A stretch of 64,000 nt of DNA from Candidatus Latescibacterota bacterium (GCA_965237675.1 OZ250150.1:4352001-4416000); one strand, 5' to 3'. Counted from the first letter of the stretch, positions 3,089-51,225 are shown. Numbers and translations are program-made. The notes: generated from the letters alone by a model not told the origin.

Positions 3089-3115
3089 GTCTGTCTCCTC
3101 TCCATCCGCCGATGG

Positions 3116-4282
3116 TTACGCCAGCTTCCTCGCGGCCTCCTGAAGGGCATCCGCCTTGTCCGTACGTTCCCAGGTAAACCCATCCCCCTTCCGCCCGAAA
3201 TGTCCGTAGACGGCGGTGGATTCATACACCGGGCGCAACAGATTCAGCGTCTGGATAATGCCGGACGGACGCAACTCGAAATGCGTGCGTATCAACGCCG
3301 CGATATCCGCATCGCTGATCTTGCCCGTACCGAACGTATCCACGACGATCGACACCGGCTCGGCCACCCCGATGGTATAAGCCAACTGCACTTCGCACCG
3401 GTTCGCAAGCCTGGCTTTCACAACGTTCTTCGCGACGTACCGGGCAGCATAGTGCGCGCTCCGGTCGACTTTGCTGGGATCCTTTCCCGAAAACGCCCCG
3501 CCGCCATGTCGCCCCATGCCGCCGTACGTATCCACAATTATCTTGCGGCCCGTCAACCCCGTGTCTCCGTGGGGCCCACCGACCACAAAACGCCCCGTGG
3601 GATTGATGTGATAGACCGTTTCCTTGTCGAGATACCGCGCCGGGATGACCTTTTTCACAACATGCTGAATCATATCGCGGGAGATGCGGCTGTGTCGTAC
3701 GTCGGGGTCGTGCTGCGTTGAAATCACGACCGTATGCACGCGCACCGGTTCGTCGTCGTCATACTCCACCGTCACCTGCGACTTGCTATCGGGCCGCAGG
3801 TAGGGAAGCGTCCCGCCTCGACGGAGCCTCGCCAGGGCCATCACCAGCTGATGGGACAGCATAATGGGCATCGGCATCAACTCCGGCGTCTCCCGGCAGG
3901 CGTAGCCGAACATCATGCCCTGGTCGCCTGCGCCCTGCTCCTGGTGCAGACCCTCGCCCTCGGTGACTCCCTGGGAGATGTCGGACGACTGTGTATGCAG
4001 CGCAAGAAGCACGCCGCAGGAACGGTAGTCGAATCCATACTCCGAGTCCGTGTAACCGATGCGCCGAATGACATTTCGCACCAATTCCTGAATATCCACC
4101 TGCGCCCGTGTGGTTACCTCGCCCGAGACAATTACCTGCCCCGTAGTCACCATCGTTTCGCACGCGACCCGCGATCGGCGATCCTGGGCCAGCATCGCAT
4201 CCAGGACCGCATCGGAAATCTGATCGCAGATCTTGTCCGGATGCCCTTCGGACACCGACTCTGAGGTAAATAGGCGCCGCAT
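3116..4282 (-). CDS. metK: S-adenosylmethionine synthetase
   Basis: [35 protein letters not shown] motifs. Confidence 0.98.
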
Positions 4283-4406: not shown

Positions 4407-6188
4407 TTATCTCTCGATTCCGGCCGGCTCTTTCTCGAATCTGCTCTGTCTCGTCCGCGGGCCCCGCATTTTGGACAACGCGGCGTGGAGATACTTCCGA
4501 ATGGCGCCCCGGGTGGGCAGCACGAGCGCCTCCTCCGCCAGGGCCCTTGCCTCCTCCATCGTAACCGACCGAATCGTCTGTTTGATCTCGGGAAGCATAC
4601 GCGGACCGATGCTGAACCCATCCACCCCCAAGCCCATCAACAGGACACTACTGTGCGGGTCGCCGGCCATTTCTCCACATACCGTGACCGGGATGCCGTG
4701 CCGGTGGCCGGCGTCGACCACCGATTTAATCAAACGCAACACGGCCGGATGAAACGGATCGTACAGATAAGCCACCCGCTCGTTGCTCCGATCCACCGCA
4801 AGGGTATACTGAACAAGATCGTTGGTGCCGATGCTGAAAAAACTCACCTCGCCCGCCAACTGGTCGGCAACAACGGCTGCCGAGGGCACCTCGATCACCG
4901 CGCCCACCTCGCACTCGTCGTCAAACGGCACGCCGTCCCGCTTCAGTTCGTCGCGGGCCTCGGCCAGCACCGCCTTGGCCTCCAGCAATTCCTCCACGCC
5001 CGAAATCATCGGAAACATCAGCTTCACGTTGCCGAGGACGCTGGATCGGAGAATGGATCGCAACTGAACCCGGAACAGATCCCGGTTTGCCAATGAATGG
5101 CGGATGGCGCGCCAGCCCAGAAACGGATTGGTTTCCTCGGCGGAATGAAAAGCCTGCGTCAGCTTATCGCCGCCCAGATCCAGGGTTCGCACCACGAGCG
5201 GATGGGGCGACATCTGTTCGGCAAGCCGTGTGTACGCGCCCGTCTGCTCGTCTTCATCGGGCAGTCGGGATCCCGCGAGGTAGAGGTATTCGGTACGATA
5301 CAGACCGATGCCTTCAGCGCCGTATGCCAGCGCGGATCGACCCTCTTCCGGCAGTTCGATGTTGCCCTGCAGAAACACGCGAACGCCATCGAGGGTTTCG
5401 GCGGGCACGTCGGTGAACTTCAACAGGCCTTTTTGTATCTCCGCGAACCGGCGGGCTTCGGCGCGGTACCGGCTCAGTGTTTCGGGATCGGGCCGGATAC
5501 AGATCAGCCCTCGATTCCCATCCACAATGGCCGTATCGCCCGGCTCGGCCGAGCCCAGGGCCGCTTCGACACCCACGACCGCCGGAATCTCGAGCCCCCG
5601 TGCGATAATCGAGGCATGCGAGGTGGCCGCGCCCGCTTCGGTGACCATACCCAACACGCTGTCCCGTTTCAGACGGGCCGCATTGGTGGGAGTCAACTCG
5701 TGTGCAATTACAATCGCCGGGGCGGTCATCCGGTCCAGCAACGAATCTTCCCGCCTTCGCAATCCGGCCAGCACCCGCGTCTCGATGTCCAGAATATCCG
5801 CTCGCCTCGCCCTGAAGTACTCGTCCGGAATTGCATCGAATTGCCGGCGCACTTTCTGAAGGGTCAGCCAGAACGCATACTCGACATTCACCAGATCCTC
5901 CCGAATGGAAGCCATGGTCGGCTCTCTCAGGGCCGGGTCATCCAGAATCATCAAATGCGCGTCGAATATCTGGGCGTGATCATGGCCCAACTTCTCCTCA
6001 ACCTGAACCCGCGTGGTCTTCAGATCTTCCGCTACGGAGGCCAGCACATCGAGAAATCGCCGCACCTCTCCCTCGACCTCATCTTCCGAGATACGCCGGT
6101 AGTCCACCCACGGCTCCTCCGGATCGTGAAGATAGACCGGGCCGATGGCAATACCGCTCGATGCCTGGATGCCTTTCAATACCTTCAT
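4407..6188 (-). CDS. ptsI: PTS enzyme I (PEP-protein phosphotransferase)
   Basis: Start MKVLKGIQASSGIAIG; TSHASIIAR phospho-His, GIGLYRTE, NPFLGWRAIR, SIGTNDL, CGEMAGD. Confidence 0.96.
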   Translation of the reverse strand: MKVLKGIQASSGIAIGPVYLHDPEEPWVDYRRISEDEVEGEVRRFLDVLASVAEDLKTTRVQVEEKLGHDHAQIFDAHLMILDDPALREPTMASIREDLVNVEYAFWLTLQKVRRQFDAIPDEYFRARRADILDIETRVLAGLRRREDSLLDRMTAPAIVIAHELTPTNAARLKRDSVLGMVTEAGAATSHASIIARGLEIPAVVGVEAALGSAEPGDTAIVDGNRGLICIRPDPETLSRYRAEARRFAEIQKGLLKFTDVPAETLDGVRVFLQGNIELPEEGRSALAYGAEGIGLYRTEYLYLAGSRLPDEDEQTGAYTRLAEQMSPHPLVVRTLDLGGDKLTQAFHSAEETNPFLGWRAIRHSLANRDLFRVQLRSILRSSVLGNVKLMFPMISGVEELLEAKAVLAEARDELKRDGVPFDDECEVGAVIEVPSAAVVADQLAGEVSFFSIGTNDLVQYTLAVDRSNERVAYLYDPFHPAVLRLIKSVVDAGHRHGIPVTVCGEMAGDPHSSVLLMGLGVDGFSIGPRMLPEIKQTIRSVTMEEARALAEEALVLPTRGAIRKYLHAALSKMRGPRTRQSRFEKEPAGIER

Positions 6189-6344
6189 CGGCTTGAAACC
6201 TCGATAGCGAGAAACATCAGTCGCGAACCCCTCGACCCGATGGTCTTCGGGAGGTGGGGGTCGGTTGGCTCGAAACGGAGCACCCGGAACTCGAACGGGA
6301 AAGCCGGCATGGAAATGGGCGCCGAGAATCACCGGTACGACGCC

Positions 6345-6605
6345 CTAATCGAACTTGCGTTCGATCATCCCAACGATTTCATCCAGCGCTTCCTCTTCAT
6401 CCGGACCCGCGGCCCGCACGCGGATTTTCGCATCCGTCTCCGCGGCCAGCATCATCACGCCCATGATACTCTTGCCGTTGACTTCGAGCCCCTCTTTGAT
6501 CAGGGTAATCTCCGATGCAAACTTTGCGGCCACCTGCACAAGAAGGGCCGACGGCCGCGCATGGATACCCAACCTGTTTTTCACCGTGGCTTCTCGTTCC
6601 GCCAT
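6345..6605 (-). CDS. ptsH: Phosphocarrier protein HPr
   Basis: GIHARPS (His15) and NGKSIMGVMML (Ser46). Confidence 0.97.
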   Translation of the reverse strand: MAEREATVKNRLGIHARPSALLVQVAAKFASEITLIKEGLEVNGKSIMGVMMLAAETDAKIRVRAAGPDEEEALDEIVGMIERKFD

Positions 6606-6647
6606 ATCCTGTTCGTACCGTTATGATAGCCCATATTGGAAGCTTAC

Positions 6648-6676
6648 AATCTATCTAAATCCAGACATCATGTCAA
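6648..6676 (-). promoter_or_regulatory. Sigma70-type promoter for ptsH-ptsI(-metK-ahcY)
   Basis: TTGACA-N17-TAGATT on minus strand. Confidence 0.6.
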
Positions 6677-6803
6677 GCGCCGCCGGGCACGTCCATAACC
6701 GCTTGTTCCCCCTTCACATGCTCGTGTCCACCGTCCTCCCAAAAAAAACCCGCCAACTTCATTCCTGGCGGATACCCGTCATTTCACCCCGATCGGACGA
6801 ACC

Positions 6804-7550
6804 CTAAACCCCGTGAACGGCACTGGCAAACTCCCGTACCAGGGCGGGGTCCCGTTTGGCTTCGAGAATACTGCCCACCACCACATAGTCGGCGCCCGCT
6901 TGTACCTTCGCCCCGGCATCCTGGGGTCTCCGGATGCCGCCCCCCACAATCACCGGAATGGTGATATTTTCCGCGACGGCGGCGATCATTTCGTCGGACA
7001 CCGCCTGGTCGGCGCCACTTCCCGCATCCAGATAGACGCATTGCATGCCCAGGTACTGGGCGGCCAGCGCGTGCGCCGTTGCGATTTCCGGTTTGTCTCT
7101 GGGCATCGGTTTGGTATTGCTGATGTATTCCACGGTCGTCTGCCGCCCGGAATCCACCAGCATATACCCCGTTGAAATCGCCTCCAGACCGAATGCCTTG
7201 ACGATGGGCGCCGCTTTCACCTGCTGCCCGATCAGCAGGTCTGGATTTCGCCCGCTGATCATGGACAGAAAGAGAATGGCATCCGCGGCAGACGAAACCT
7301 GGTTGATATCCGGCCCGGGAAAAATCAGCACGGGAATCCCCACGGCCCGTTTGACCTCCCGGACGACCCGGTCAAAATCGGTATAGAGCAGAAGACTGCC
7401 CCCCAGCAACAGCGCGTCGGCCCCGCTTTCGGCACACATCGCTGCCGTATGGACCAGGTCCTGTTTGTCCATGCGATCGGGATCCAGAAGACACCAGAAT
7501 CCCGCGCCCCGCTGTCTGAGAACCGCTTTGAGGTGGTCGTACGTCGACAT
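6804..7550 (-). CDS. Geranylgeranylglyceryl/heptaprenylglyceryl phosphate synthase (group II GGGPS, PcrB family)
   Basis: LLDPD, LGGS, IFPG, SMISGRNP..LIGQQV, GYML, YLDAGSGA, VGGGIR motifs. Confidence 0.92.
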   Translation of the reverse strand: MSTYDHLKAVLRQRGAGFWCLLDPDRMDKQDLVHTAAMCAESGADALLLGGSLLLYTDFDRVVREVKRAVGIPVLIFPGPDINQVSSAADAILFLSMISGRNPDLLIGQQVKAAPIVKAFGLEAISTGYMLVDSGRQTTVEYISNTKPMPRDKPEIATAHALAAQYLGMQCVYLDAGSGADQAVSDEMIAAVAENITIPVIVGGGIRRPQDAGAKVQAGADYVVVGSILEAKRDPALVREFASAVHGV

Positions 7551-7559
7551 AAATACGCT

Positions 7560-10181
7560 CTACCTTCCCAGTTGTGCCCGGACGATCTGTGGAACCCGGG
7601 CAAGCGCGTCGGACATCTTCTCCGGATGCCTGCCCCCGGCCTGTGCCAGATGGGGGCGTCCGCCGCCACCGCCGCCCACCAGTTCAGCTACCGCCTTAAC
7701 GATAGTTCCCGCCTGAACGCCCCGTTGGATGAGGTCGTCCGTTACCACTGCGATCAGGGAGGCTTTGCCGTTCATGGCCGCGCCGAGCACACCCACGCCC
7801 GACCCCAGGGCTTCACGGAGCCGGTCGCCCATATCCCGAAACGCCTCCATGTCCGCCGGCTGAACGGCGGTAGCCACCACCCGAACCCCATCCACGGTTA
7901 CGGCGTCGCCGGCCAGATCGCGCATCCGCTCCCCGGCCGATGCGCTCCGCAGCGATTGATTCGTCCGCTCGAGTTCCTTGCTTCGAGAGATCAATCGATC
8001 CACGCGATCGGGCAACACGTCGGCCTCGACGCTCAACATCTCCTCCAGCGTGGAGAGCGTGGACCGCTGCCTTGCGATCAGGGTCTCCACGCCGGCCGCG
8101 GTGACCGCTTCCACCCGCCGCACGCCGGCCGCCGTGCCCGTCTCCGCCGTCAGCTGGAGCATGCCGATCTGACCCGTCGATCCCACGTGCGTGCCGCCAC
8201 AAAGTTCCAGGCTGTAATCGCCCACCCGCACCGTACGCACCAACTCCCCGTATTTTTCGGAGAACAACATCCGGGCACCCATCCGACGCGCCTTCTCCAG
8301 GCCGACGGTATCGATTTCCACGGCGATATCCTGTCGGATCACCCGATTCACGATATGCGCGATCTTTTCCCGCTGGGCGGGTGAAACGGCTTCGAAGTGG
8401 TTGAAGTCGAACCGCAGTCGGTCCGGCGCGACCAGAGACCCGGCCTGGTTCACATGGTCTCCAAGCACCTGCCGGAGGGCCTCGTGGAGCAGATGGGTCG
8501 CCGTATGGTTGCAGGCGATATCCATCCGGCGCACGGGGTCGACCTGCGCCTGCACGCGCGCCGCGTCCAGTGCGTCGGCGCTTCCCCGCGAGAGACGCCC
8601 CCGGTGCACAATGCCCGCGCCCGACCGGAACGTATCCTCGACCTCAACCTCCAGATCCGCATTCCTGATCTGTCCCCTGTCGCCCACCTGCCCGCCGGAT
8701 TCGGCGTAAAACGGCGTCTCTTTCAGATATACGTCCACCCGCCCGTCGGCCGTGGATTTCCATGCCGCGACACGGGTGTCCAACGCCAGACACTCGTACC
8801 CGACAAATACGGAATGTTCGCGCGGAAGGAAATCGTCCGACACCGCCTCCTGGGACGCGAAGACCCGCCGCCCTGCCTCGCGCGAGCGCGCCTGCTGGTC
8901 GGCCATCTCACGTTCAAACCCGTCCAGGTCCACCTCCAGCCCGCGCTCGGCGCCCATCAGCTGGGTGAGATCGATGGGAAATCCGTAGGTGTCATATAGA
9001 CGAAACGCATCCCGGCCAGAGACTTTCCCCTTCCCGGATACGACCTCGAACATTTCCAGCCCCCGGTCGAGCGTCTTCCCAAACCCTTCTTCTTCGGACC
9101 GGATGACCCTGGAAATGTGATCGGCCTGTTCTTCCACCTCGGGGAAGACACCGCCCATGACCCGTGCGACAACAGGCACCAGCCCGTGAATGAACGGATC
9201 GTGCAATCCCAGGGTACGCCCGTAACGCGCCGCGCGCCTCAAGATACGCCGCAGCACATACCCGCGCCCCTCGTTGGATGGCAGTACCCCGTCCGCTATT
9301 GCAAAACAGAGTGTGCGGATATGGTCGGCGATGACCCGCATGGCCACCCGATGTTCATCGTCGTACGGTTTCGCGGCGACCTCGCCGATCGCGGCAAGAA
9401 TGGGCTGGAACAGATCGGTATCGTATGTGGAATCCACCCCCTGGAGCACGGTACAGATGCGCTCGAACCCCATTCCGGTGTCTACGTGTTTATCGGGCAA
9501 CGGATGAAGCGTGCCTTCGGTATCCCGGTTGAACTGGATGAATACCAGGTTCCAGATTTCAACCACATCCGGCCCGTCCAGGTCCGGGGCCTCGCGGAAC
9601 CACGACGCCGGATCGTCTCCCAGGTAGTAATGCACCTCCGAGCAGGGGCCGCACGGCCCGGTTTCGCCCATCTGCCAGAAGTTATCGGCCTTGCCGAGCC
9701 GAAAAACCCGTTCCGCCGGCAAGTCGGTCACCTCCGTCCACAACGCTTCCGCCTCCTCATCCACGGCCAGACCGTCCGCGGCGTCTCCGCCAAACACAGT
9801 GGCGCAAAGTCGATCTTTGGGAAGCTTCCAGACCTCGGTTAGCAACTCCCAGGCCCAGGCGATGGCCTCCCGCTTGAAATAATCTCCGAATGACCAGTTG
9901 CCCAGCATCTCGAAAAACGTATGATGCTGTGAACTGAAACCCACCTCCTCCAGGTCGTTGTGATGCCCCGATACGCGGATGCATTTTTGCGTATCCACCG
10001 CCCTGCTGTAATCGCGCCGGCCCGTACCCAGAAACACGTCTTTGAATTGGTTCATCCCCGCATTGGTAAACAGCAGGGTGGCATCGCCGTGCGGCGCCAC
10101 CGGCGCGCTCGGAACAACCGTATGCCCCTTACGCTCAAAGAACCGCAAATAGTCCGTCCGTATATCGGCCGAAGATTTCAT
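7560..10181 (-). CDS. alaS: Alanyl-tRNA synthetase
   Basis: LLFTNAGMNQFK, HHTFFEMLGNWSFGDYFK, HTATHLLH / ELCGGTH editing site, GGGGG C-terminus. Confidence 0.98.
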   Translation of the reverse strand: MKSSADIRTDYLRFFERKGHTVVPSAPVAPHGDATLLFTNAGMNQFKDVFLGTGRRDYSRAVDTQKCIRVSGHHNDLEEVGFSSQHHTFFEMLGNWSFGDYFKREAIAWAWELLTEVWKLPKDRLCATVFGGDAADGLAVDEEAEALWTEVTDLPAERVFRLGKADNFWQMGETGPCGPCSEVHYYLGDDPASWFREAPDLDGPDVVEIWNLVFIQFNRDTEGTLHPLPDKHVDTGMGFERICTVLQGVDSTYDTDLFQPILAAIGEVAAKPYDDEHRVAMRVIADHIRTLCFAIADGVLPSNEGRGYVLRRILRRAARYGRTLGLHDPFIHGLVPVVARVMGGVFPEVEEQADHISRVIRSEEEGFGKTLDRGLEMFEVVSGKGKVSGRDAFRLYDTYGFPIDLTQLMGAERGLEVDLDGFEREMADQQARSREAGRRVFASQEAVSDDFLPREHSVFVGYECLALDTRVAAWKSTADGRVDVYLKETPFYAESGGQVGDRGQIRNADLEVEVEDTFRSGAGIVHRGRLSRGSADALDAARVQAQVDPVRRMDIACNHTATHLLHEALRQVLGDHVNQAGSLVAPDRLRFDFNHFEAVSPAQREKIAHIVNRVIRQDIAVEIDTVGLEKARRMGARMLFSEKYGELVRTVRVGDYSLELCGGTHVGSTGQIGMLQLTAETGTAAGVRRVEAVTAAGVETLIARQRSTLSTLEEMLSVEADVLPDRVDRLISRSKELERTNQSLRSASAGERMRDLAGDAVTVDGVRVVATAVQPADMEAFRDMGDRLREALGSGVGVLGAAMNGKASLIAVVTDDLIQRGVQAGTIVKAVAELVGGGGGGRPHLAQAGGRHPEKMSDALARVPQIVRAQLGR

Positions 10182-10324
10182 CGTTCGAAATGGCATTGAT
10201 AAAGGCGCACAACAATCGCGGCGGCCGGTTAAGGATCGGGAACCGCGCGCGTTCGATTCAGATGCTGATAGACCGGGACAACGACCGCGCCCTCACACAA
10301 CGGAAGGGCGGCGCACCGGATGTT

Positions 10325-10951
10325 CTACCCACGTTCCCGGCTCATGCATTCCGGGTCTGCATGGTTTCCGCTTTCACGAAACTCCAGCCACGCCCGCTCC
10401 GCCGCCGACTGCGCCACGGCCGCGAATCCGCGACGCCCGAGGAATCCGTACATTCGAGAAAGCGCCTTCCGCCGGTCGACGCCGTCGTATTGCCTGCGGC
10501 GCGACCTGAGAAGATCTAGGGCGACGGCCTCGACGTCCACGCCGTGAAACGCCTCATCCAGCGCATTCTCCCCGGTTTCGGGGTCGATTCCGCGTTTCTT
10601 CAGGTCGTGCGCGAGCAACGCCCGGCCGGCGGGTCGACGACGCATGCGTTCCTGTACAAAGCGGCGGGCGAAATCCCGATCGTCGACCAGCTTCAGCCTC
10701 CGCAACACATCCATGGTCTGATCGACCACAGATTCCTGAAACCCCCGCCGGCGCAGTCTTTCTTCAACTTCCCTGTGCGAATACGCACGCGCGCTCAACA
10801 GTCGAAACGCTGCGTTCTTCGCCTTTTCGACGGTCGCATGGAGATCCGATGCCGGCGCCGAACGGGTGTTCGGTTTCATGTGCAGCACCTCGATGACACC
10901 AAACCGCGGCCCTCCCGGATTGCCCGCAGAGACGACCTGTTTCCGAGACAT
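10325..10951 (-). CDS. recX: Regulatory protein RecX (start uncertain, possibly 10879)
   Basis: AFRLLSARAYS..E...RLRRRGF, DDRDFA, FLGRRGF; directly downstream of recA. Confidence 0.9.
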   Translation of the reverse strand: MSRKQVVSAGNPGGPRFGVIEVLHMKPNTRSAPASDLHATVEKAKNAAFRLLSARAYSHREVEERLRRRGFQESVVDQTMDVLRRLKLVDDRDFARRFVQERMRRRPAGRALLAHDLKKRGIDPETGENALDEAFHGVDVEAVALDLLRSRRRQYDGVDRRKALSRMYGFLGRRGFAAVAQSAAERAWLEFRESGNHADPECMSRERG

Positions 10952-10957
10952 CCCCTT

Positions 10958-12025
10958 CTACGTGCGCGGGTTTCCCTGTGTGTCTTCGCCTTTGTCGGCC
11001 GCCTCCGGCGTACCGTTGTCCGACAGGCCCACGGCCTCCCGCACCCGGGCCTCGATCTGTGTGGCAAGCTCCGGATGTTCCTTCAAATGGTTCTTTACGT
11101 TTTCCCGCCCTTGCCCCAGACGATCGCTTCCGTAGGAAAACCAGGTTCCGCTCTTGCTGACAATACCGTGAAGTTCGGCAATGTCGAGAAGGCTGCCCTC
11201 TCTTGAGATGCCCTCTCCGAACATCAGATCGAACTCCGCCTCTTTGAACGGCGCCGCCATCTTGTTCTTGACCACCCTGACACGAACCCGGTTGCCCGTG
11301 ACTTCCTGGCCGTCTTTAATGGCTCCGATTCGACGGATATCCATTCGTACTGACGCGTAGAACTTGAGCGCATTTCCGCCCGAGGTGGTTTCCGGATTGC
11401 CGAACATGACGCCGATCTTCATTCGGATCTGGTTCGTGAACATCACACACGTCTTGGACCGGCTGATCGAACCGGAAAGCTTCCGCAGCGCCTGAGACAT
11501 CAGCCGCGCCTGCAATCCCACGTGGGAATCGCCCATGTCCCCTTCCAGTTCCGCGCGCGGCACTAGCGCCGCCACCGAGTCGACCGCCACCGCGTCGAAT
11601 GCGCCGCTGCGCACGAGCGTGTCGGTAATTTCCAGGGCCTCTTCGCCGGTATCGGGCTGGGAAATGAGCAGTTTTTCCAGGTCGACCCCAATCCGCTCGG
11701 CAAGCTCTACATTGAGCGCGTGCTCCGCATCGACAAACGCGCACGTTCCGCCCGTCCGCTGTGCCTCCGCGATGACGTGCAGAGTCAGCGTTGTTTTTCC
11801 GGATCCTTCGGGACCGTAAATTTCGACGACGCGGCCACGCGGCACCCCGCCCGCACCGAGGGCGACATCCAGCGCCAACGCTCCGGTCGGGATCACTTCG
11901 ATGGGCACCCGTCCACCCTCCTCGCCACCCAGGCGCATGATGGAACCCTTGCCGAACTGCTTTTCAATTTGAGAGATGGCCAGATCGATGGCCTTCTCTT
12001 TACCGACGACGTTGCGTTTCGCCAT
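10958..12025 (-). CDS. recA: Recombinase A
   Basis: [39 protein letters not shown]. Confidence 0.99.
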
Positions 12026-16995: not shown

Positions 16996-17270
16996 AGGCC
17001 GTGCACCCCGCTTCGGCGTTCACGCCGGGGTATTCGGAAAGCGCCAGCTCCCGCCAGGGGGCCCCGCGGCACACGGGCCGGGTTACCTACCGCTGCTACC
17101 TTCCGGTCCTGACGGGGTTTGGTAATCGTCCGTTGCGCAGGACCTGGCGATCGACACCGCGTACTGACCGAATCACGTTCCGGAATGAAGAGCCTCAGAC
17201 GAGGAATTCAACCCCGCTATAGCGGATTGCGGGCTACAGGGCGCCGCTACTTCCCCGTCTAGCACGACCT
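16996..17270 (-). ncRNA. ffs: Large bacterial SRP RNA (Alu-domain-containing, scRNA-type)
   Basis: Minus strand has helix 8 CCGTCAGGACCGGAAGGTAGCAGCGG; 5' GGTCGTGCTAGACGGGGAAGTAGCGG Alu-like start pairs with 3' GTGCACGGCC; about 275 nt; upstream of dnaX. Confidence 0.9.
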
Positions 17271-17334: not shown

Positions 17335-17410
17335 TGGTGGAGCTGATGGGATTCGAACCCACGACTTCCAGAGTGCGATTCTGGCGCTCTCCCAACTGAG
17401 CTACAGCCCC
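17335..17410 (-). tRNA. tRNA-Ala(CGC)
   Basis: GGGGCTGTAGCTCAG...CCAGA-ATCGCAC-TCTGG...GTTCGAATCCC...CTCCACCA. Confidence 0.96.
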
Positions 17411-17917: not shown

Positions 17918-18010
<93 letters not shown>

Positions 18011-20882: not shown

Positions 20883-20974
<92 letters not shown>

Positions 20975-23234: not shown

Positions 23235-23310
23235 TCCGGCGTAGCTCAGCTGGCAGAGCGGGTGGCTGTTAACCACTAGGTCGTAGGTTCGAGTCCTACC
23301 GCCGGAGCCA
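23235..23310 (+). tRNA. tRNA-Asn(GTT)
   Basis: TCCGGCGTAGCTCAG...GTGG-CTGTTAA-CCAC...GTTCGAGTCC...GGAGCCA. Confidence 0.96.
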
Positions 23311-24398: not shown

Positions 24399-24811
24399 AA
24401 ACAAGCACGGACTTCGCCGGTCGGCAACTGCAAAGGAAGACGGGCGACATCAGGGCGCCGATCGGACCCTTTCACCAGGCCCTCGCCAGCCCACGTCCAA
24501 CCAGATTGTCCCCCGCCTTTTCTTTGTTCGCGCGCACGGTTGGCGGCGAAGCCTGTCGCGGCTGCCTGCAACGCGCCAGGCATCTCCAACACGTTTTTCA
24601 AAGCGCCGAGATCCGCCTTACGCCCCATATCGGCGTGGTTTTTTTTGGCGTTTGCCCAACTTCGGAATTGACCTGAACTCGTTGAGTTCATATATAGTTT
24701 GTACTCATTCGATATCCGGTCCGTTTCTGTTCGAAGTTGAACCGGATTCGCCGTTGGCTGTCCGATATCAATGCCAAGGGCTGCTTTGATGTACTTTGGA
24801 GATTAAACCGC

Positions 24812-26461
24812 GTGCCTGAAATCGACTATCTCACGGATCTGATAATCGTACTCGGCTCGGCGGTGCTGGTCGCAACCGTACTGCGGCGCGCAGGGATCCC
24901 GTCGATCGCCGGACTGATTCTGGCGGGTATGCTGGCCGGACCCACGGCGCTGGCCCTCGTGGACGACACCCACCAGGTTGAGGTGCTGGCAGAGATCGGA
25001 ATCGTCCTCCTGCTCTTCGGGATCGGTCTGGAACTCTCACTGAGCCATATGCGGCGCCTCTGGAAAGCCGTCCTGCTGGGCGGAGGCATCCAGGTGACCG
25101 CCACCATCGTCTGCACCGCGGCTGCGGCAAGTTGGTTCGGTCTTGCGCCGGGGCCGGCGGTGTTTCTGGGCTTTAGCGTCGCCGTTTCCAGCACGGCCAT
25201 TGTCCTGCGAGGCCTTTCCAAGCGGGGTGAACTGGATGCGCCGCACGGCCGCCTGGCTGTCGGCATCCTGATCTTCCAGGACCTGAGCGTGATTCCGATG
25301 ATCCTGGCGGTGCCTTTTCTGGCCGGACAGGAAAGCTCCGCGCGGGAGATCGCGCTGGCAGCCGCCACAAGCCTCGCCATCCTGGTAGGTGTGCTCGTTG
25401 CAGCCAACCGCGTTGTTCCATTTATACTCGCATTCGTGGCCAGGACGAGGGAGAGAGAGTTGTTTATTCTGACCGTCTTTCTCGTCTGTTTCGGAATTGC
25501 GTGGGTGCTTTCGCTGGCGGGACTCTCGCTGGCGCTGGGTGCGTTCCTGGCGGGCATAATCGTCGCGGGAAGCGAGTTTCGTCACCAGGCAATGTCGGAC
25601 CTGATTCCCGTGCGCGAAGCCTTCGCCAGCCTGTTCTTCGTTTCCGTGGGCATGCTGTTGGACGTTTCGGAAGTGTTCGCGCACCTCCTGCCGACGCTCG
25701 GGCTCTGCGCCATTATTCTCGTGGGCAAATTCGCCATCGTGCTTGGAATGGGCCTCGTGCTTCGGCTGCCGCTGCGCGTAGCGATCCAGTCCGCGGCCAC
25801 GTTGTGCCAGATCGGCGAGTTTTCGTTCGTGCTCCTGAAGGCAGCCTCGGGAACCGGCCTCCTCGATCCCACACTATCTCACAACCTCCTGCTGGCGATC
25901 ATCCTGTCCATGTTGCTCACACCCATGGCCATCGCATTCGCCCCGCACCTGGCGCTCGGCGTCAGCCGAATCCCATGGCTCAACCGGATTCTGGATGCCG
26001 AGCCCCCCGGAATCGATTCCCACGAACCGTACAGCGACCATGTTATCGTCGCCGGGTACGGCCGGGCGGGCAGAGAGGTCTGTCGGGCGGCTCGAAACGC
26101 AGGGTTCGCCTGTGTTGCAGTTGACGTGAATGTCGACAATGTCCGCAAGGCAAAAGCGGCGGGAGACCTGGCGGTGTACGGAGACGTTACGCAGACGGAA
26201 ATCCTTGAGGACCTCGGTTGCAGGGATGCGCGCCTTGTTGTGGTAACCATCAACGACACACGTGCTACCGAGATCGCCGTCCACGCGATCCGCGCCGCGG
26301 CGCCCGACACCTCCATCATCGCTCGCACCCTGTACGACATGGACGAGAACTCGCTGCGGGACGCAGGCGCCACCCGGGTCATCACGGCCGAAGCCACGAC
26401 CAGTGACGTGGTCGTCAATACATGCCTTGCGGAACTGGAATCGGGAAAGACGGAGACTTAG
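24812..26461 (+). CDS. CPA2-family cation:proton antiporter with TrkA-N domain (KefB/KefC/YbaL-like)
   Basis: LAEIGIVLLLFGIGLE, SSTAIV, GILIFQD, LGAFLAG, QIGEFSFVL, GYGRAG Rossmann. Confidence 0.92.
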   Translation: MPEIDYLTDLIIVLGSAVLVATVLRRAGIPSIAGLILAGMLAGPTALALVDDTHQVEVLAEIGIVLLLFGIGLELSLSHMRRLWKAVLLGGGIQVTATIVCTAAAASWFGLAPGPAVFLGFSVAVSSTAIVLRGLSKRGELDAPHGRLAVGILIFQDLSVIPMILAVPFLAGQESSAREIALAAATSLAILVGVLVAANRVVPFILAFVARTRERELFILTVFLVCFGIAWVLSLAGLSLALGAFLAGIIVAGSEFRHQAMSDLIPVREAFASLFFVSVGMLLDVSEVFAHLLPTLGLCAIILVGKFAIVLGMGLVLRLPLRVAIQSAATLCQIGEFSFVLLKAASGTGLLDPTLSHNLLLAIILSMLLTPMAIAFAPHLALGVSRIPWLNRILDAEPPGIDSHEPYSDHVIVAGYGRAGREVCRAARNAGFACVAVDVNVDNVRKAKAAGDLAVYGDVTQTEILEDLGCRDARLVVVTINDTRATEIAVHAIRAAAPDTSIIARTLYDMDENSLRDAGATRVITAEATTSDVVVNTCLAELESGKTET

Positions 26462-26534
26462 TGTCAAGATGCAAAGCCACAATTGACTGGTTGTCCTAGG
26501 ATTCCCTGTGGTCATTTCCCTCCCTTCTTATTGA

Positions 26535-26665
26535 TTTTATTATTTTTACGCCCTTTTTCTTTCTCGCCCAAGAAAAAGGGCCAAAAAGAACGGCGCCGCT
26601 CAGACGCCGCGGGGCTGCTTTTCCGAGAACCACCTCAAAGGCGATTGCCTGGGTTGGTGGCCTGC
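26535..26665 (+). repeat. Structured repeat element, diverged copy A
   Basis: CCCTTTTTCTT..CCAAGAAAAAGGG.CAAAAAGAA.GGCGCCG...TTTTCCGAGAA, homologous to copies at 27355 and 27804. Confidence 0.75.
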
Positions 26666-26705
26666 GTAGTTCCGTGGTGTTCCGTAAACCGTGTTGCTGC
26701 GCGAA

Positions 26706-26741
26706 GGGCGGCGGTTCGCGAACCGCCCCTACAAAATCTGA
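26706..26741 (-). repeat. GTAG-type REP-like palindrome, type 1 (second copy 28184-28217)
   Basis: GGCGGTTCGCGAACCGCCCCTACAAAATCTGA present twice. Confidence 0.8.
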
Positions 26742-26761
26742 TCATCCGCAAATCTTAATCG

Positions 26762-26836
26762 CCGGGTCGTAACGTTGGACGACGGCGAGACTATTCACAA
26801 TGCATTCTTTGACAGGGGATTTCGAAAGGAAATGCG
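26762..26836 (+). pseudogene. C-terminal remnant of toxin-like partner of DUF2283 protein
   Basis: RVVTLDDGETIHNAFFDRGF, typical end of small proteins preceding DUF2283 genes. Confidence 0.5.
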
Positions 26837-27052
26837 ATGAAACTACACTATTATCCGGAGACCGACAGCCTCTACGTCGAATTCAAACCCGAACCGGGCG
26901 CGGAAACTCGCGAGGTCGCCGACGGTCTGAATGTCGATCTTGACGCCAATGGCGACGTCGTGGGATTTGACATCGATAAGGCTTCCGTCCGCCTGGACCT
27001 TTCCACTTTGGAAACGACGGCGCTGCCGGTGCGCGCTTACAAAGCGGGATGA
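26837..27052 (+). CDS. DUF2283-family protein (putative antitoxin)
   Basis: MKLHYYPETDSLY, VDLDANGDVVGFDI. Confidence 0.85.
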   Translation: MKLHYYPETDSLYVEFKPEPGAETREVADGLNVDLDANGDVVGFDIDKASVRLDLSTLETTALPVRAYKAG

Positions 27053-27181
27053 ACTGCGGCGGACCTGCGCTTCACGAGTGTGTAATTGAAGAACACGCCC
27101 ACCCAGATGGTATTGCAGCATACGACGAGGAAGCGGAACCACTTGTTGTTCCGGGAATTCTAATTGTCGCTAATTAGCAAC

Positions 27182-27270
27182 GCGCCACCCGGGTCATCAC
27201 GGCCGAAGCCACGACCAGTGACGTGGTCGTCAACACCTGCCTCGCGGAACTGGGATCGGGAAAGACGTAG
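27182..27270 (+). repeat. Direct repeat of the antiporter gene 3' end (26367-26452)
   Basis: About 86 bp near-identical GCGCCACCCGGGTCATCACGGCC...TCGGGAAAGACG, followed here by TAG. Confidence 0.9.
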
Positions 27271-27354
27271 GCGTAGGCAGGGTAACGACGGAAAACGGCC
27301 AATGATGATCGGTTGTGCTCCGGGCCTGTGAGGTCACTTCCCTCTGCCTTATTA

Positions 27355-27541
27355 TCTCATTTTTCTTTTTTCTTCGTCCTTTTTCTTGTACGCCAAGAAA
27401 AAGGGCGAAAAAGAAGGGCGCCGTTCGGCACGGGGCCGTTCTTTCCGCGAAGCGCCTAACGACCTGGCACAGGCTTCTTTGCCCTTCGTTCCCGTACGAA
27501 CCCACAGGGCTTCGGTGCTGGACGGATTAACGCGGAAAAAC
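27355..27541 (+). repeat. Structured repeat element, copy B
   Basis: About 97 nt identical to copy C, 64-nt variable core, conserved TGCTGRACGGAWTAACGCGGAAAAAC tail. Confidence 0.85.
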
Positions 27542-27576
27542 CCCCAACCCCCAGACCGGACGCGCCGTCGTTGTAT

Positions 27577-27658
27577 TTGTAGGGGCAACCCTTGTGGTTG
27601 CCCTCGTCGTGGCGCGCGCATCTCCGATTGGCTTCGCCGGGCCATATCGATGTCCGGT
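27577..27658 (+). repeat. GTAG-type REP-like palindrome type 2 plus tail (second copy 28261-28343)
   Basis: TTTGTAGGGGCAACCCTTGTGGTTGCCC...GGGCCATATCGATGTCCGGT present twice. Confidence 0.8.
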
Positions 27659-27803
27659 GGACGCCGGGTGGCCTTCTTACGTTTCCCGTTTCCCGTCTCA
27701 CTGCCTCATGCGGTGTGGTCCTCTCACTTCTACCGGCTTACGGCTTACGGCTCTTTGGAACTGCGTTTCGGTCGGACACAGGCTTTTCCTCCATCCCTTC
27801 AAC

Positions 27804-27990
27804 TCTCATTTTTCTTTTTTCTTCGTCCTTTTTCTTGTACGCCAAGAAAAAGGGCGAAAAAGAAGGGCGCCGTTCGGCACGGGGCCGTTCTTTCCGCGAA
27901 TTGCCGAAATGGAGAAGACGTACGATGTTGCCCTGCCGGCGCCGCAGGCTATCCAAAACGACATTGCTGAACGGAATAACGCGGAAAAAC
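27804..27990 (+). repeat. Structured repeat element, copy C
   Basis: Same constant flanks as copy B with a different 64-nt core. Confidence 0.85.
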
Positions 27991-28752
27991 TCTCCCGCCA
28001 CCGATGTTGCATTTTGCGACACGTTAAGGTGCGTGCGTCCCGCCCGCACAATCGTTTGGCCATATCGCAGAGGACTCCCGCAGGTTCTCTGCTGTAGGTT
28101 TCTCGCTGAATGCTGATGGCTGATCGCTGCGTTTCCTATATGTCTTCGTGCCTTTGTGTGAGCCCATTGTCGGCGCGGAAAGACGGGCGGTTCGCGAACC
28201 GCCCCTACAAAATCTGACATCCTTGATATTGATATCGCCGTGTTACGCGCCGCCTTGGCATTTGTAGGGGCAACCCTTGTGGTTGCCCTTGTCGTGGCGC
28301 GCGAATCTCCCGTTGGATTCGCCGGGCCATATCGATGTCCGGTTTTGGCTGAGTGCTGACAGCTGTTAGCTAATAGCTGTTTTCTGATTGCTTTCCTTAG
28401 CCATTGATAAACATAGTGTTATTCTCTCACACCAGGCGACGAGTGTCCATAGGCTGGGTTTCACATAGAGCTTTCTCGTCCTGCGATTTCCACCGGGCTG
28501 CCGCTAGTAACGAGATCACAATGTAGAATTCCATCGGGTTCTTTTTCTGTACTGAACAATGCATCGGAACTGTCGCAAAATGCAACACATCCGGATCAGG
28601 GTTGAATTGCCCACCAATGCCGATTTTCATATATTCCCCAGGCATCCAATTGACTCCATCCAGGCGGGTTCGGTCGAAGATAGCCACCCATGTAGACTTA
28701 AGGCTTCCAAAGTGGTGACTGTCAATCGTGGAAATGCGAAACGGAATTGCCA

Positions 28753-29571
28753 ATGAACGATCCCCACGTGGTCGCGTTATTTTACAGTATTGATCACGGA
28801 AATGCGGTGAACTACGACGAAGCGGAACCGCTTGTTGTGGAAGAAAAAGCATTTCGTCTTGAAGTAAAGGACAAGAAAGCGTCGGTCTTCCTGAAGGATC
28901 ATTACGGGACGGAAGCAGAAGCCCGTAAAGCCATCGAGGAATACATCCGCACGTGGGAGTTCGATGCGTGTCTGCAGGGCGGGCCGGACTACTTTAAGTT
29001 GAATTATGAACGCCCTGAGATTGTGGACCGCAATCCTCAGACACCACCCCCGGGAGCTGTAGAATTATACCTAACACCAGTGATATTCCCACCGGCATCC
29101 ATTGCAGTTTCTGTTTCCAGAGTTGCCACGAGTTACCCGTCACCGCCGGCCGATGTCAGCGTCACGCCGGACGTCAAGACAATGTATGATCGGTATTTGG
29201 GGTATCGCCGAGGCCGCGAGCCGTTAACCGGGATGGCGTATTTCTGTGTGACTATCTTGGAATGGATGGCCAAAGAAGAGATTGGACGCCATAACAACCG
29301 AAAAATAAAGAAAAAAGGACGCGATGCTGCCGCCGAATATTTCCAGATTTCCAGTAGCGTCCTTAATAGAATTGGGAAGTTATCTACAGAAAGAGGTGGC
29401 CCATCGGAGGCAAGAAAGCGTGAGGGCGTCAAGCAGGATCTGACAGGAAACGAACGTCGCTTTCTGGACGAAGCGATCAAAAAGATTGTTCGCCGAGTGG
29501 CTGAGAAGGCGAAGGCAGGAAAAAGGGAATTAACGAAAATGACAATGTGTGACCTGCCGCCCTGCAAGTAG
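28753..29571 (+). CDS. Hypothetical protein (possibly MauJ/HEPN-like)
   Basis: Clean 272-aa ORF with lower GC; helical C-terminal half (AYFCVTILE...EARK); family assignment is a weak recollection. Confidence 0.6.
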   Translation: MNDPHVVALFYSIDHGNAVNYDEAEPLVVEEKAFRLEVKDKKASVFLKDHYGTEAEARKAIEEYIRTWEFDACLQGGPDYFKLNYERPEIVDRNPQTPPPGAVELYLTPVIFPPASIAVSVSRVATSYPSPPADVSVTPDVKTMYDRYLGYRRGREPLTGMAYFCVTILEWMAKEEIGRHNNRKIKKKGRDAAAEYFQISSSVLNRIGKLSTERGGPSEARKREGVKQDLTGNERRFLDEAIKKIVRRVAEKAKAGKRELTKMTMCDLPPCK

Positions 29572-48833: not shown

Positions 48834-51225
48834 ATGTCGCCCCATTGCCCTCTGCGAAATTCCATATTGGCACTTGCCCTGATTTTCGTCGGATGCCAGC
48901 CGGACGAAAAGGTGACGGTTTCCGGCGCGGTGACGAAACCGGGCGCGTACCGGTACGCCCCGGACAGACTGGCGGCGGATTATCTGGAGGATGCCGGCGG
49001 CGCAACCGAGGAGGCGCTGTTGGACGAGGCCCACGTGTCGCGCGTGCGTGCGGACACGTCCGGGGTGGCGGATATCGGAGACGTGACGATTCCGCTGTCG
49101 GAGAATCCTGAGATATCGCCTGGAGATGAGATTCGGATTCCCGGGCGCATTTATGACGTGCGGTTAGACACGGTTCGGCGCGTGGACGACGTCAGGCTGG
49201 TCGACGGGAATCGAATCTATCGGATTCCCTCGGGCGCCCTGGTGTCCGGGTGGACGGAACGCGGCGTCCAGGTGGCGCTGATGCTGGGACGCGGAAAGGT
49301 TTTCGAAACGCCCGATACGTCCAAGGCGGTGTCGGCCTTTCACTATCTGTACATCCATCTGCATCCCGGAGAATATCCGCGCCTGGCGCGATTTACCGGG
49401 GAAATCGTGGACAGTCTGGAGGCGCTCGAAGACGCCCACGCCATCCACAGGCGGGCTGTAAACTCCCTGGAACACCTGCGTGACGGAGGTCTGCAGCTTC
49501 CCGCCCCACGGGTATTGGCGCGTGATAGAGGGCTATTTCCTGGCCCCGAGGAGGACATCGCGTCCCGGGAGAGGCATGCGCCGGCGCCGGTTCAAGGACG
49601 GACGCGTGTTGACGACCTTTCCGGACGGGCGGCAGCGATGGCAGCACCCTGACGGGCGGGTCAGCTTGGCGTCACCGAGCGGCGCCACCGAAGACCGGTT
49701 TCCCGATGGACGAATCGTGTTCACCGACCGGTGGAAAAACGTGCGCACCACGTATCCCGACGGGCGGGTCAACGTGGCGTTTCCGAGCGGCGCCACCGAA
49801 GACCGGTTTCCCGACGGACGGATTGTGTACACCGACCGGTGGAAGAACGTGCGTACCACGTATCCCGACGGCCGTCGGGAATGGAGAATGGCGTCGGGAA
49901 GGCGGGTGGAACGGGCGACCGACGGTCGGATAGTCAGGCACAATGTGGACGGCGATTTAATTGAAAAGATGCCGGACGGCGGAACCCGCCGCGTTGCTCT
50001 GGACAGTTCGACATGGATTAAAGACGCCAACGGCGTGATCACATTGATCGGCGGGAAATCCCTGAAAAAGATATATCCAGACGGACGACATGTACTAATT
50101 ACGGAAAAAGGCGACGAAGTCACCACGTATCCGGACGGACGGCGCGTATCCCGTCTGGCCGATGGCACAGTCATTCATTTCGATCCCGCAGACAGTGTGG
50201 CCGCAAGGCCCGCTTCGCGACAGGCGGCGGGCATCCCGGTGGAGAAAGATCCCCGGGGGACGCCGCGCGAGGGTGTCACGTCGATTTGGAGCGGCGACGG
50301 CCGGTTGGCAACCCGCGGAGAGGGAAGTTTGCGCACCGTCCGCCCCGACGAATATACGACCTCAAAAGGGGGGACCCGGGAGACGTTTCCCGATGGGCGA
50401 CGGGTCGAGTCCGATCGCATCGGCCATACGATTACCTCCTGGACCGACGGGAGAAAGGAAGTCCGGATGCCCGTCGCTTACGGTTATCCGGGTCAGTTGA
50501 AAACAGGCCTGGCAACGGTCGACCGGCTTCCGAAGGCGGTCGCCGTCGGCGAAGAACTGACCGTGTCGGGACAGATCCATGGCGAGGTGGAAGATATAAA
50601 CGTGATAGCATTTCTCGTACCCGACGGAGACGCGATCAAAGGCGACGTACGCAGGCGGGGACGGCGGTTTCACGCGCGGTTCCGGTTCGGCGAGGCGGGG
50701 CATTGCCGCGTTCAGGTTCAGGTTGTATTGCCCAGAGCGCGCACGTATACGGTTTCCCACCAGTCCGTGATTGTCGGCAATCCCGATGACCTGGAAGGCG
50801 AAGTCCTGGAAATTGCTCCTTATCCGGGGGACGAGGCCGCCCAGTTGTTTCTGATCGATCGAATTAACGCGGCCCGGAAGCGGATTCGACGCGGTTCGGT
50901 ATTTCCACATCCCGAGTTGATGCACGTGGCGCGCATCCGGCTCGAAGAGATGCTTGCGATGGGTTATATATCCCATTTTTCCATGACAGGATTGGACGTG
51001 GGATGGCATGCGGCCTACCGCCGGTTGCCCTTCCACCACGTGGGTGAAAATGTGGCGAGGACGCGTTTTGTCGAAACGATGCACGCCGGCTGGATGCTGA
51101 GCGCGGGGCACCGTGCGAATATCCTGGCGAAGCACTGGACGCATGTGGGGGTGGCGGTTGCCGAAGCGGAGGGATCGGTCTGGGGCGTTCAGGTATTCGC
51201 GCGGCGTTTCGACCGGGGCCCTTAG
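48834..51225 (+). CDS. Lipoprotein with SLBB domain, PDG beta-hairpin repeats (TCP10/CPAP G-box-like) and C-terminal CAP/SCP domain; single-base frameshift near 49500
   Basis: Lipobox FVGC; VTVSGAVTKPGAY..AGG (SLBB); many [FY]PDG repeats; INAAR, GYISH, GENVA, WMLSAGHRANIL (CAP); removing one C in CTTCCCGCCCC joins the two ORFs. Confidence 0.7.
49648..49871 (+). repeat. Intragenic tandem duplication, period 108 bp (36 aa)
   Basis: PSGATEDRFPDGRIV[FY]TDRWKNVRTTYPDG twice. Confidence 0.9.

Follow-up and report, generated by a model that had tools for sequence, protein, structure and literature searches.

The window considered here is a 64,000-nucleotide (nt) stretch from a Candidatus Latescibacterota bacterium (GCA_965237675.1, OZ250150.1:4352001-4416000), and the subject is a repeated intergenic element of which three copies, termed A, B and C, lie on the + strand after the gene of a 574-residue Na+/H+ exchanger with a TrkA-N domain (24737-26461, +). 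Copy A occupies 26526..26699, copy B 27352..27562 and copy C 27800..28001. They are members of a large, uncatalogued family of folded, non-coding intergenic elements, about 220-240 nt long, that is dispersed in Latescibacterota genomes. The family is new as far as Rfam and literature searches reach. With Rfam 15 at gathering thresholds, the whole window yields only a signal recognition particle (SRP) RNA and four tRNAs and the element is unmatched; permissive scans of 26000-29000 and of 5900-6700 in locus L079 give at most 28 bits on the element against gathering scores of at least 55, and literature searches return no account of such an element in Latescibacterota. Nearly all that is known of this phylum comes from metagenomes.

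An earlier note on this DNA described B (27355-27541) and C (27804-27990) as identical flanks around a differing core of fixed length (64 nt), and this description is exact by count. The 5' flanks (27355-27451 and 27804-27900) are the same at 97 of 97 nt in a script count, the cores (27452-27515 and 27901-27964) match at 23 of 64 nt, where composition predicts 25%, and the 3' flanks match at 24 of 26 nt. Likeness stops outside these borders, with 14/40 nt matching upstream and 11/40 downstream. Short anchors that the note placed within the cores (GCCnAA, AC, TTGCCCT and CA) sit at identical offsets in the alignment of B with C. The diverged copy A that it placed near 26535 is real: a repeat finder gives 72% identity over 68 nt at 26534-26601, the family covariance model (R1) scores 50 bits at 26582-26731 and nhmmer returns E=8e-38 at 26526-26700. 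Chance is excluded as a source of these likenesses because the pattern of the first hairpin (P1, three matches in the window) and that of the 3' flank (two matches) never occur in 100 shuffles. Pattern, covariance model and nhmmer searches find no copy beyond A, B and C in the window.

Copy B is a complete type I element (R1 124.8 bits at 27407-27547; nhmmer E=4e-48 at 27352-27562) and consists, in order, of a T-rich leader, hairpin P1, a purine linker, hairpin P2, stem P3 around the core and a C-rich tail, all on the + strand. P1 was found by the repeat finder at 27376..27406 (arms 27376-27388 and 27394-27406, loop TACGC), and its arms can be extended to 27367-27415 at 86% complementarity. 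The purine linker GAAAAAGAA (27407..27415) is a mirror repeat of the P1 3' arm. P2 (GGC.CCGU-UCGGC-ACGG.GCC) occupies 27417..27437 and is supported by covariation, as are the P3 arms at 27438..27449 and 27531..27542, which pair with each other and close the core at 27450..27530, a loop delimited by the information profile of 69 cores and by loop lengths. Within it lie island 1, which follows AA and in which both B and C deviate from the family consensus CCTCAG.GG, island 2 (TGCCCT, 27480-27485) and island 3 (GCTGGACGGA, 27517-27526), with two diverged blocks between them. Copy C, also type I and complete (R1 123.3 bits at 27856-27996; nhmmer E=5e-49), repeats this layout at the coordinates of copy B plus 449, with P1 at 27825-27837/27843-27855, P2 at 27866-27886, P3 at 27887-27898/27980-27991 and islands at 27929-27934 and 27966-27975. 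Copy A is a diverged type I copy with P1 arms at 26550-26561 and 26570-26581, followed by P2, the P3 5' arm and most of the core. It is truncated at its 3' end, without the family's 3' island and P3 3' arm, and the missing part is gone after 26699, exactly where a hairpin of the repetitive extragenic palindromic (REP) type starts.

A scan of genome contigs with a 20-base pattern common to A, B and C returned at least 101 loci, so that all family counts given here are lower bounds. At least 81 of these 101 loci lie in nine metagenome-assembled genome (MAG) assemblies, seven labelled Candidatus Latescibacterota and two labelled Gemmatimonadota; the other 20 are A-rich chance matches in other phyla. 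After removal of overlaps there are at least 84 distinct type I copies, the three of the window included, with at least 21 and at least 19 in two single assemblies, and of 141 matches to R1, 110 are distinct. By pairwise BLAST, the region that copies have in common runs from about -60 to about +180 relative to the scan pattern. Among the matches listed, the element and its neighbouring REP type occur together only in these MAGs. The carriers labelled Gemmatimonadota are loci L034, L047 and L067 (JAPPNU01) and L096 (JAPPFJ01), and genes that flank copies in these two assemblies have 77-91% DNA identity to those of assemblies labelled Latescibacterota; the two labels may here describe close relatives. 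The note's statement that the element is non-coding holds, as even the best reading frame is open in only 38 of 68 copies; long open reading frames (ORFs) across B and C were rejected as coding because their frames differ between the two copies.

The fold shared by the family is nested and consists of hairpin P1, hairpin P2 and a 12-base-pair (bp) stem, P3, that closes a loop of about 79 nt. Read in the element's own sense, as on the + strand here, the leader is followed by an A/T-rich P1 of 12-13 bp, the linker GAAAAAGAA, a G/C-rich P2 (family form GGC.CCGC-loop-GCGG.GCC), P3 with its loop and the C-rich tail. P1 is invariant or compensated in 54 sequences, and P2 and P3 covary strongly. In a MAFFT alignment of 32 sequences (A2), 97.7% of P2 and P3 cells are paired and 24 cells carry double changes against 6.4 +/- 1.8 after shuffling (0/500 shuffles), with slid controls reaching only 46-57% paired and at most 5 double-change cells. 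In the alignment of the 110 distinct R1 matches (A3), which was fitted to the tested structure and so is biased towards it, making A2 the cleaner test, 95.9% of cells are paired against 86.9% shuffled, and double changes occur in 14 of 19 pairs (141 cells against 30.1 +/- 4.2; 0/500).

The note had proposed that the flanks pair as a pseudoknot, and the complementarities that it named are indeed present in the sequence. The pairing of TTTCCGCG with CGCGGAAA is part of the well-supported P3. The other, CCGTTCGGCA with TGCTGRACGG, is without covariation support: in A2, 83.1% of its cells are paired against 83.2% shuffled, with no double changes. On these figures the pseudoknot was rejected; its pair at columns 18:118 is unpaired in 29 of the 32 sequences, and compensation for changes in its 5' segment falls within the local hairpin P2. 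Mutual information over a further alignment (A1) is swamped by subfamily structure and is uninformative for the core. A separate observation on P2 concerns L008, L011, L013, L024, L026, L070, L072, L075 and others, in which one fixed point, after GGCGCC, carries an inserted hairpin that is GC-rich and about 33 nt long (TGCCTGCC...GGCAGGCAGG type); L075 has further, nested hairpins. The P2 segment measures at least 57 nt in about 15 of the copies in which both P3 arms are matched, and these have different cores and belong to both scaffold subtypes. The insert is either a site-specific mini-insertion or an optional helix.

A constant scaffold with a variable core of fixed length, as proposed from B and C, holds across the family. 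A pattern search located the two P3 arms together in 74 of 86 copies, at arm-to-arm distances of 76-80 nt (79 nt in 47 copies, 78 in 12, 80 in 11, 77 in three and 76 in one), and the remaining 12 are truncated, interrupted, contain runs of N or have variant arms. Three islands (CCTCAG.GG, TGCCCTR and GCTGGACGGA) stand at fixed loop positions, and between them lie two diverged blocks of about 16 and 30 nt with about 0.52 bits per position. The note had called these blocks unrelated, which overstates their divergence: median ungapped identity is 0.41 (5-95% range 0.28-0.65; 69 cores) and types recur, with single-linkage clustering of the 69 cores at 62% gapped identity returning one group from which no clean types can be counted. 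Loop length and islands are thus constrained and most of the loop sequence is not. RNAalifold on the 69 cores recovers P3 plus a few weak pairs only. Hairpins seen by eye did not survive inspection; one in island 1 (CCNC....GNGG) is paired in 72.1% of cells against 72.6% shuffled, and the others have average pair probabilities of at most 0.29 and no conserved diagonal.

Weaker R1 matches that lie on the opposite strand, a few hundred nt downstream of many type I copies, define a paralogous form, type II. Fifteen sequences aligned alone (A4) have the plan of type I in other sequences: P1 is GTTCCTTTTG/CAAAAGGAAC, P2 is close to that of type I, with a compensated variant CCAC/GTGG in one copy, and P3 is CA.AGCGCG/CGCGCTCTG. 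The loop has the same three islands and, by eye in A4, a size similar to that of type I. By nhmmer, type II has 16 distinct copies of full length and several that are partial, none of them in the window, and in nine distinct cases a type I and a type II copy stand tail to tail, 134-419 nt apart. In the type II leader (CCT-N-CGGCG-N'-G), A4 columns 20 and 26 contain only A/T (7), C/G (3) and T/A (5) in the 15 sequences, which is either a tiny covarying pair or three inherited variants. Local arrays occur in both forms: L011 has three tandem type II copies about 375 nt apart (2510-3454, -) and in L061 a 5-kb stretch holds three type I copies whose cores are similar (6001-11028, +), and both resemble the three-copy arrangement of the window.

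P1 and its linker have a further property. In all 84 type I copies the two arms of P1, pyrimidine and then purine, are followed by GGC and the purine linker, which together make up a mirror layout of 9/loop/9/3/9 (Y9, loop, R9, N3, R9); it gives nine perfect triads in 45 copies and 8/9 in 39, and constitutes a potential intrastrand triplex motif. In the part of the source available, class II intrastrand triplexes under the ITxF criteria are defined by three stems of 6-15 nt, A.A-T and G.G-C triads, at most one mismatch and loops of 1-6 nt; class II motifs of BoxC and TMECO are associated there with rearranged loci, and the pyrimidine motif is said to form in RNA too (PMC4666352). P1 with its linker has the same layout as the BoxC/TMECO motifs, with 9-nt stems and the same two triads, and the element is likewise an abundant intergenic repeat in rearranged loci. 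It differs in that its motif is A/T-rich rather than G/C-rich, that loop 1 is mostly 8-9 nt (range 5-10) against their 3-6 nt, and that the motif takes up only about 40 nt of an element of about 230 nt and has no counterpart in type II. Loop 2 measures 3 nt, and loop 1 falls within 1-6 nt in one of 84 copies, although one or two extra Watson-Crick pairs shorten it. Read on the antisense strand, these tracts would correspond to the pyrimidine motif. The triplex layout is not the core feature of the family because type II is without the mirror repeat.

Type I P2 resembles an intrinsic terminator in being a G/C hairpin between an A-tract and a T-tract. In a consensus scan, P2 with its T-run is flagged as terminator-like in each of the window's three copies, there on the minus strand, and P2 in L079 is flagged on both strands, with the type II copy of that locus unflagged; unlike a terminator, the element devotes only about 40 nt to this hairpin, and its type II form goes unflagged. 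Together these properties could describe an intergenic structure that acts at the level of DNA or transcription, with P2 and its tracts as a bidirectional terminator or insulator, P1 and linker as a triplex motif that promotes rearrangement and the loop as a spacer. The terminator-like flags, the triplex layout shared by all 84 type I copies and matching the class II motifs linked with rearranged loci in the available part of PMC4666352, and the visibly rearranged state of the carrier loci all favour this explanation, which we nevertheless regard as decidedly unlikely. Type II has neither the mirror repeat nor a flagged terminator and yet keeps P3 and the loop islands, so that the conserved heart of the family is P3 with its loop, which a terminator or triplex does not explain. 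Copies are also not enriched between convergent genes (15/67), and loop 1 exceeds the 1-6 nt limit in 83 of 84 copies.

The two diverged blocks invite comparison with RNAs that carry guides. The bridge RNA of IS110-family elements is encoded in the non-coding end of an IS110 or IS1111 element beside the recombinase gene, and has two stem-framed internal loops with guide segments that match the target and donor flanks. The present element is similar in size and also has a constant folded scaffold with internal segments that differ between relatives. It is unlike bridge RNA in that it does not lie beside a recombinase gene, occurs in tens of versions per genome rather than as identical insertion-sequence copies, has no conserved stems framing two loops and has variable blocks that do not match the flanks (bridge RNA: PMC11208160 and PMC11208158). 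A gene-unlinked version of this logic would have scaffold and islands bind an effector encoded elsewhere and the two blocks base-pair with nucleic-acid targets, which is quite improbable; just as improbable is its extension, in which each genome would hold tens of 'addresses', with new combinations made by scaffold recombination, and thus many unlinked guide genes in an uncultured phylum. A loop of constant size that, in both of the paralogous families, holds two diverged blocks at set positions would suit such a design, as would the blocks' lack of engagement in conserved internal pairing and the apparent exchange of cores between loci with constant scaffolds.

The searches for targets and effectors lend this design no support. 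The note had proposed testing whether variable blocks match the flanks of their own copies or phage and plasmid sequences, and neither match appears. Longest common words between cores and their own flanks average 6.8-7.1 against 6.8-7.0 for foreign flanks in either orientation, a test that position-specific guides of 4-7 nt would escape. The B-C stretch (27355-27990) has no phage hit and only two 36-nt Burkholderia plasmid hits (E=0.6), which we put down to chance. Between neighbouring type I and type II cores there is neither partner-specific complementarity (6.4 against 6.1) nor partner-specific identity. The note's remark that no partner protein is encoded nearby holds beyond the window too, as none recurs within 3.5 kb of 86 copies. 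This search clustered ORFs of at least 80 residues, and 13 representatives were read; the large clusters are only ORFs over the element itself, and the other recurrent clusters (13, 10, 7... members) were read as ordinary enzymes. ORFs beyond type II leaders and within the wide type I-type II pair include nothing recurrent or recombinase-like. Pfam was run on one locus protein, of the BrkB family, and on the window neighbours.

Membership of other known systems was also considered and rejected. [quoted passage not shown] The attC sites of integrons stand in arrays beside cassettes, and each forms a hairpin that is imperfect, spans the full length and has R''/R' core sites (RYYYAAC / GTTRRRY); here the loop is not self-complementary, the P3 arms are off the core-site consensus and most copies are solitary. 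REPs and bacterial interspersed mosaic elements (BIMEs) are built, according to the part of PMC3733652 available, on a palindrome of 20-40 nt tagged GTAG or CGTC, and the element, at about 230 nt, is untagged, with true GTAG-tagged REPs lying beside it.

[quoted passage not shown] Like these, it is short, non-coding, foldable and intergenic, has tens of copies per genome and is present or absent between related genomes, and it adjoins and is interrupted by small repeats (REPs and the 33-nt P2 hairpin). It is unlike them in having no detected terminal inverted repeats or target duplication, and in having a covarying three-helix scaffold with a length-constrained, diverged loop that bears islands, rather than a uniformly diverging body. 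What is unusual is this length-constrained, island-bearing, exchangeable loop.

Presence and absence at orthologous intergenic sites bears on mobility. L034 has an element where L055 and L052 have none, L065 has one where L060 has none, and L032 holds a decayed remnant relative to L028. None of these sites is a clean empty one; the orthologous intergenic regions otherwise fail to align or contain remnants, so that exact ends are undefined. At one orthologous locus (L004/L066) the upstream flank, a gene end, has an identity of 0.86 and the scaffold 0.94, whereas the core has 0.60, where the background for cores is 0.61; the two copies correspond in leader, P1 and P2, and differ in sequence type from the P3 5' arm on. 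The core type of L004 recurs in a third genome, at a different locus (L005). The closer pair L024/L042 has core identity of 0.97 and flank identities of 0.93-0.94. B and C are mosaic in the same manner as L004/L066, with identical arms and different centres, and this suggests that cores may be exchanged by recombination through the constant arms; the claims of exchange and of scaffold selection draw on few orthologous pairs.

These dynamics could also be those of a selfish, non-autonomous, MITE-like mobile element, in which a transposase or recombinase with its gene elsewhere in the genome would recognise the hairpins and islands, with loop length set by the geometry of that machinery and the blocks as filler. 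Such an element would account for tens of copies per genome that are always intergenic by ORF calls and have no orientation preference (neighbour classes 23/17/15/12 among 67 copies with two neighbours), for orthologous presence and absence with the L032 remnant, for one core type at non-orthologous loci of two related genomes (L004 and L005), for the tandem arrays and truncated copies that occur in the family, and for type I and type II copies that stand tail to tail like two long, diverged inverted ends. The note's suggestion of a mobile element is borne out as regards insertion polymorphism in a short, non-coding, multi-copy repeat; the terminal repeats and target-site duplications expected of one were not found in alignments of leader with tail. 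No terminal inverted repeat of a single element is seen, leader and tail are both C-rich on the same strand, and a copy-specific direct repeat is absent (local alignment 13.1 for own against 13.3 for other pairs, p=0.72). Within 3.5 kb of the copies there is no recurrent family of transposase-like ORFs, the gene inside the one wider type I-type II pair is for a BrkB/YihY-type membrane protein, and recent transposition predicts likeness over the whole length, whereas scaffolds are far more alike than cores. A selfish origin of this kind is an unlikely explanation, though one to be taken seriously.

We incline, tentatively and at somewhat less than an even chance, to the reading that the elements encode a structured RNA or act in cis as parts of one. 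A shared factor would recognise scaffold and islands, and selection would for that reason maintain both; the diverged blocks would be specific to lineages. Copies would be passed on by descent, become duplicated or lost, and be swapped among loci through recombination in the constant scaffold. In favour of it are the size of the family, the covarying helices with their counterparts in type II, the narrow range of loop lengths with its conserved islands, the lack of coding potential and the spread of neighbour orientations (23/17/15/12), which points to an independent unit. Here we infer transcription, an active strand, protein binding and a role for the diverged blocks. The pair L004/L066 is the case counted for resident copies that keep their scaffold (0.94) with the core at background.

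Several results weigh against a structured RNA. Minimum free energies of the loop do not differ from those of dinucleotide shuffles (mean z -0.02 on the + strand and +0.09 on the minus strand, n=69), and no conserved inner helix was found (best 4-bp diagonals 39-59% paired); with neither excess folding nor an inner helix, most of the proposed RNA would be unstructured. The strand is also in doubt. The note had held that pairing is kept on the + strand only, and wobble counts do not decide this: P3 of A1 has 10 A.C against one G.U, favouring the antisense strand, and a larger set has 20 A.C against 11 G.U, plus 40 G.U at one terminal pair. No sigma-70-like promoter was found adjoining the element in the window copies and L079. 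The fit of A3 to the tested fold enters here as well, as do the traits of selfish repeats (high copy number, tandem arrays, truncated copies, orthologous presence and absence). Selection on resident scaffolds is argued from very few orthologous pairs, and gene conversion could mimic it.

If these elements are RNA genes, they would, tRNA aside, be one of the largest families of structured RNA present in many copies in a bacterial genome, with at least 19-21 copies in two assemblies. Their design is unusual in that a covarying scaffold closes a long, unfolded, length-constrained loop whose sequence differs between copies, even at the same locus in relatives. Such a design is expected of an adaptor or guide, which makes the family a concrete candidate to test. 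If they are instead selfish or structural DNA, they provide a clear case of mosaic evolution, with constant arms kept alike and the centre exchanged, and a useful marker of rearrangement-prone intergenic regions in Latescibacterota. Covariance model R1 and alignments A1-A4 make the family searchable in either case.

The surroundings of the window copies are themselves rearranged. The last 95 nt of the exchanger gene (26367-26461) recur with 93% identity at 27182-27276, 815 nt downstream and just before copy B, and the segment between these repeats holds copy A, a REP and a DUF2283 ORF (26837-27052). This duplication looks like a small insertion or replacement that carried its own copy of the gene end. 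GTAG-tagged hairpins of REP type, which are not members of the family, lie at 26709..26732 (-), abutting the truncated end of copy A, at 27579..27603 (+), 37 nt after copy B, at 28264-28288 (+), a second copy of the latter, and at 28185-28208 (-), an inverted copy. The same REP type follows copies in L034, L047, L056 and L084, and REPs often lie directly past the element tail. Their hairpins have two stem types, GGGGCAACC..GGTTGCCC and GGGCGGTTCGCGAACCGCCC, and longer blocks around the window REPs are repeated too (27560-27658 and 28245-28343, 91%).

Other repeats adjoin the elements. Runs of GCTGA-like units (e.g., GCTGAATGCTGATGGCTGATCGCTG) occur in adjoining intergenic DNA, in the window at about 28100-28135 and past type II leaders in L027, L030, L056, L064 and L066, and look like another repeat family. 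G/C-rich CCCCTCTCCCC...GGGAGAGGG...GGGGGGAGAGG motifs and CCCCCTTCC...GGAAGGGGG hairpins lie near elements, the motif sites being between elements in L028, L064, L065 and L079 and downstream of the tail in L065, L076, L082 and L092; these motifs resemble the G/C-rich triplex motif pattern given in the available part of PMC4666352. Elsewhere in the window, the SRP RNA (large bacterial type, 169.9 bits) and the four tRNA genes lie at 16999-17267(-), 17338-17410(-), 17922-18010(-), 20887-20974(-) and 23235-23307(+), two of the tRNA regions share stretches of 83-91% identity, and a 108-nt unit is present in two tandem copies with 90% identity at 49648-49863.

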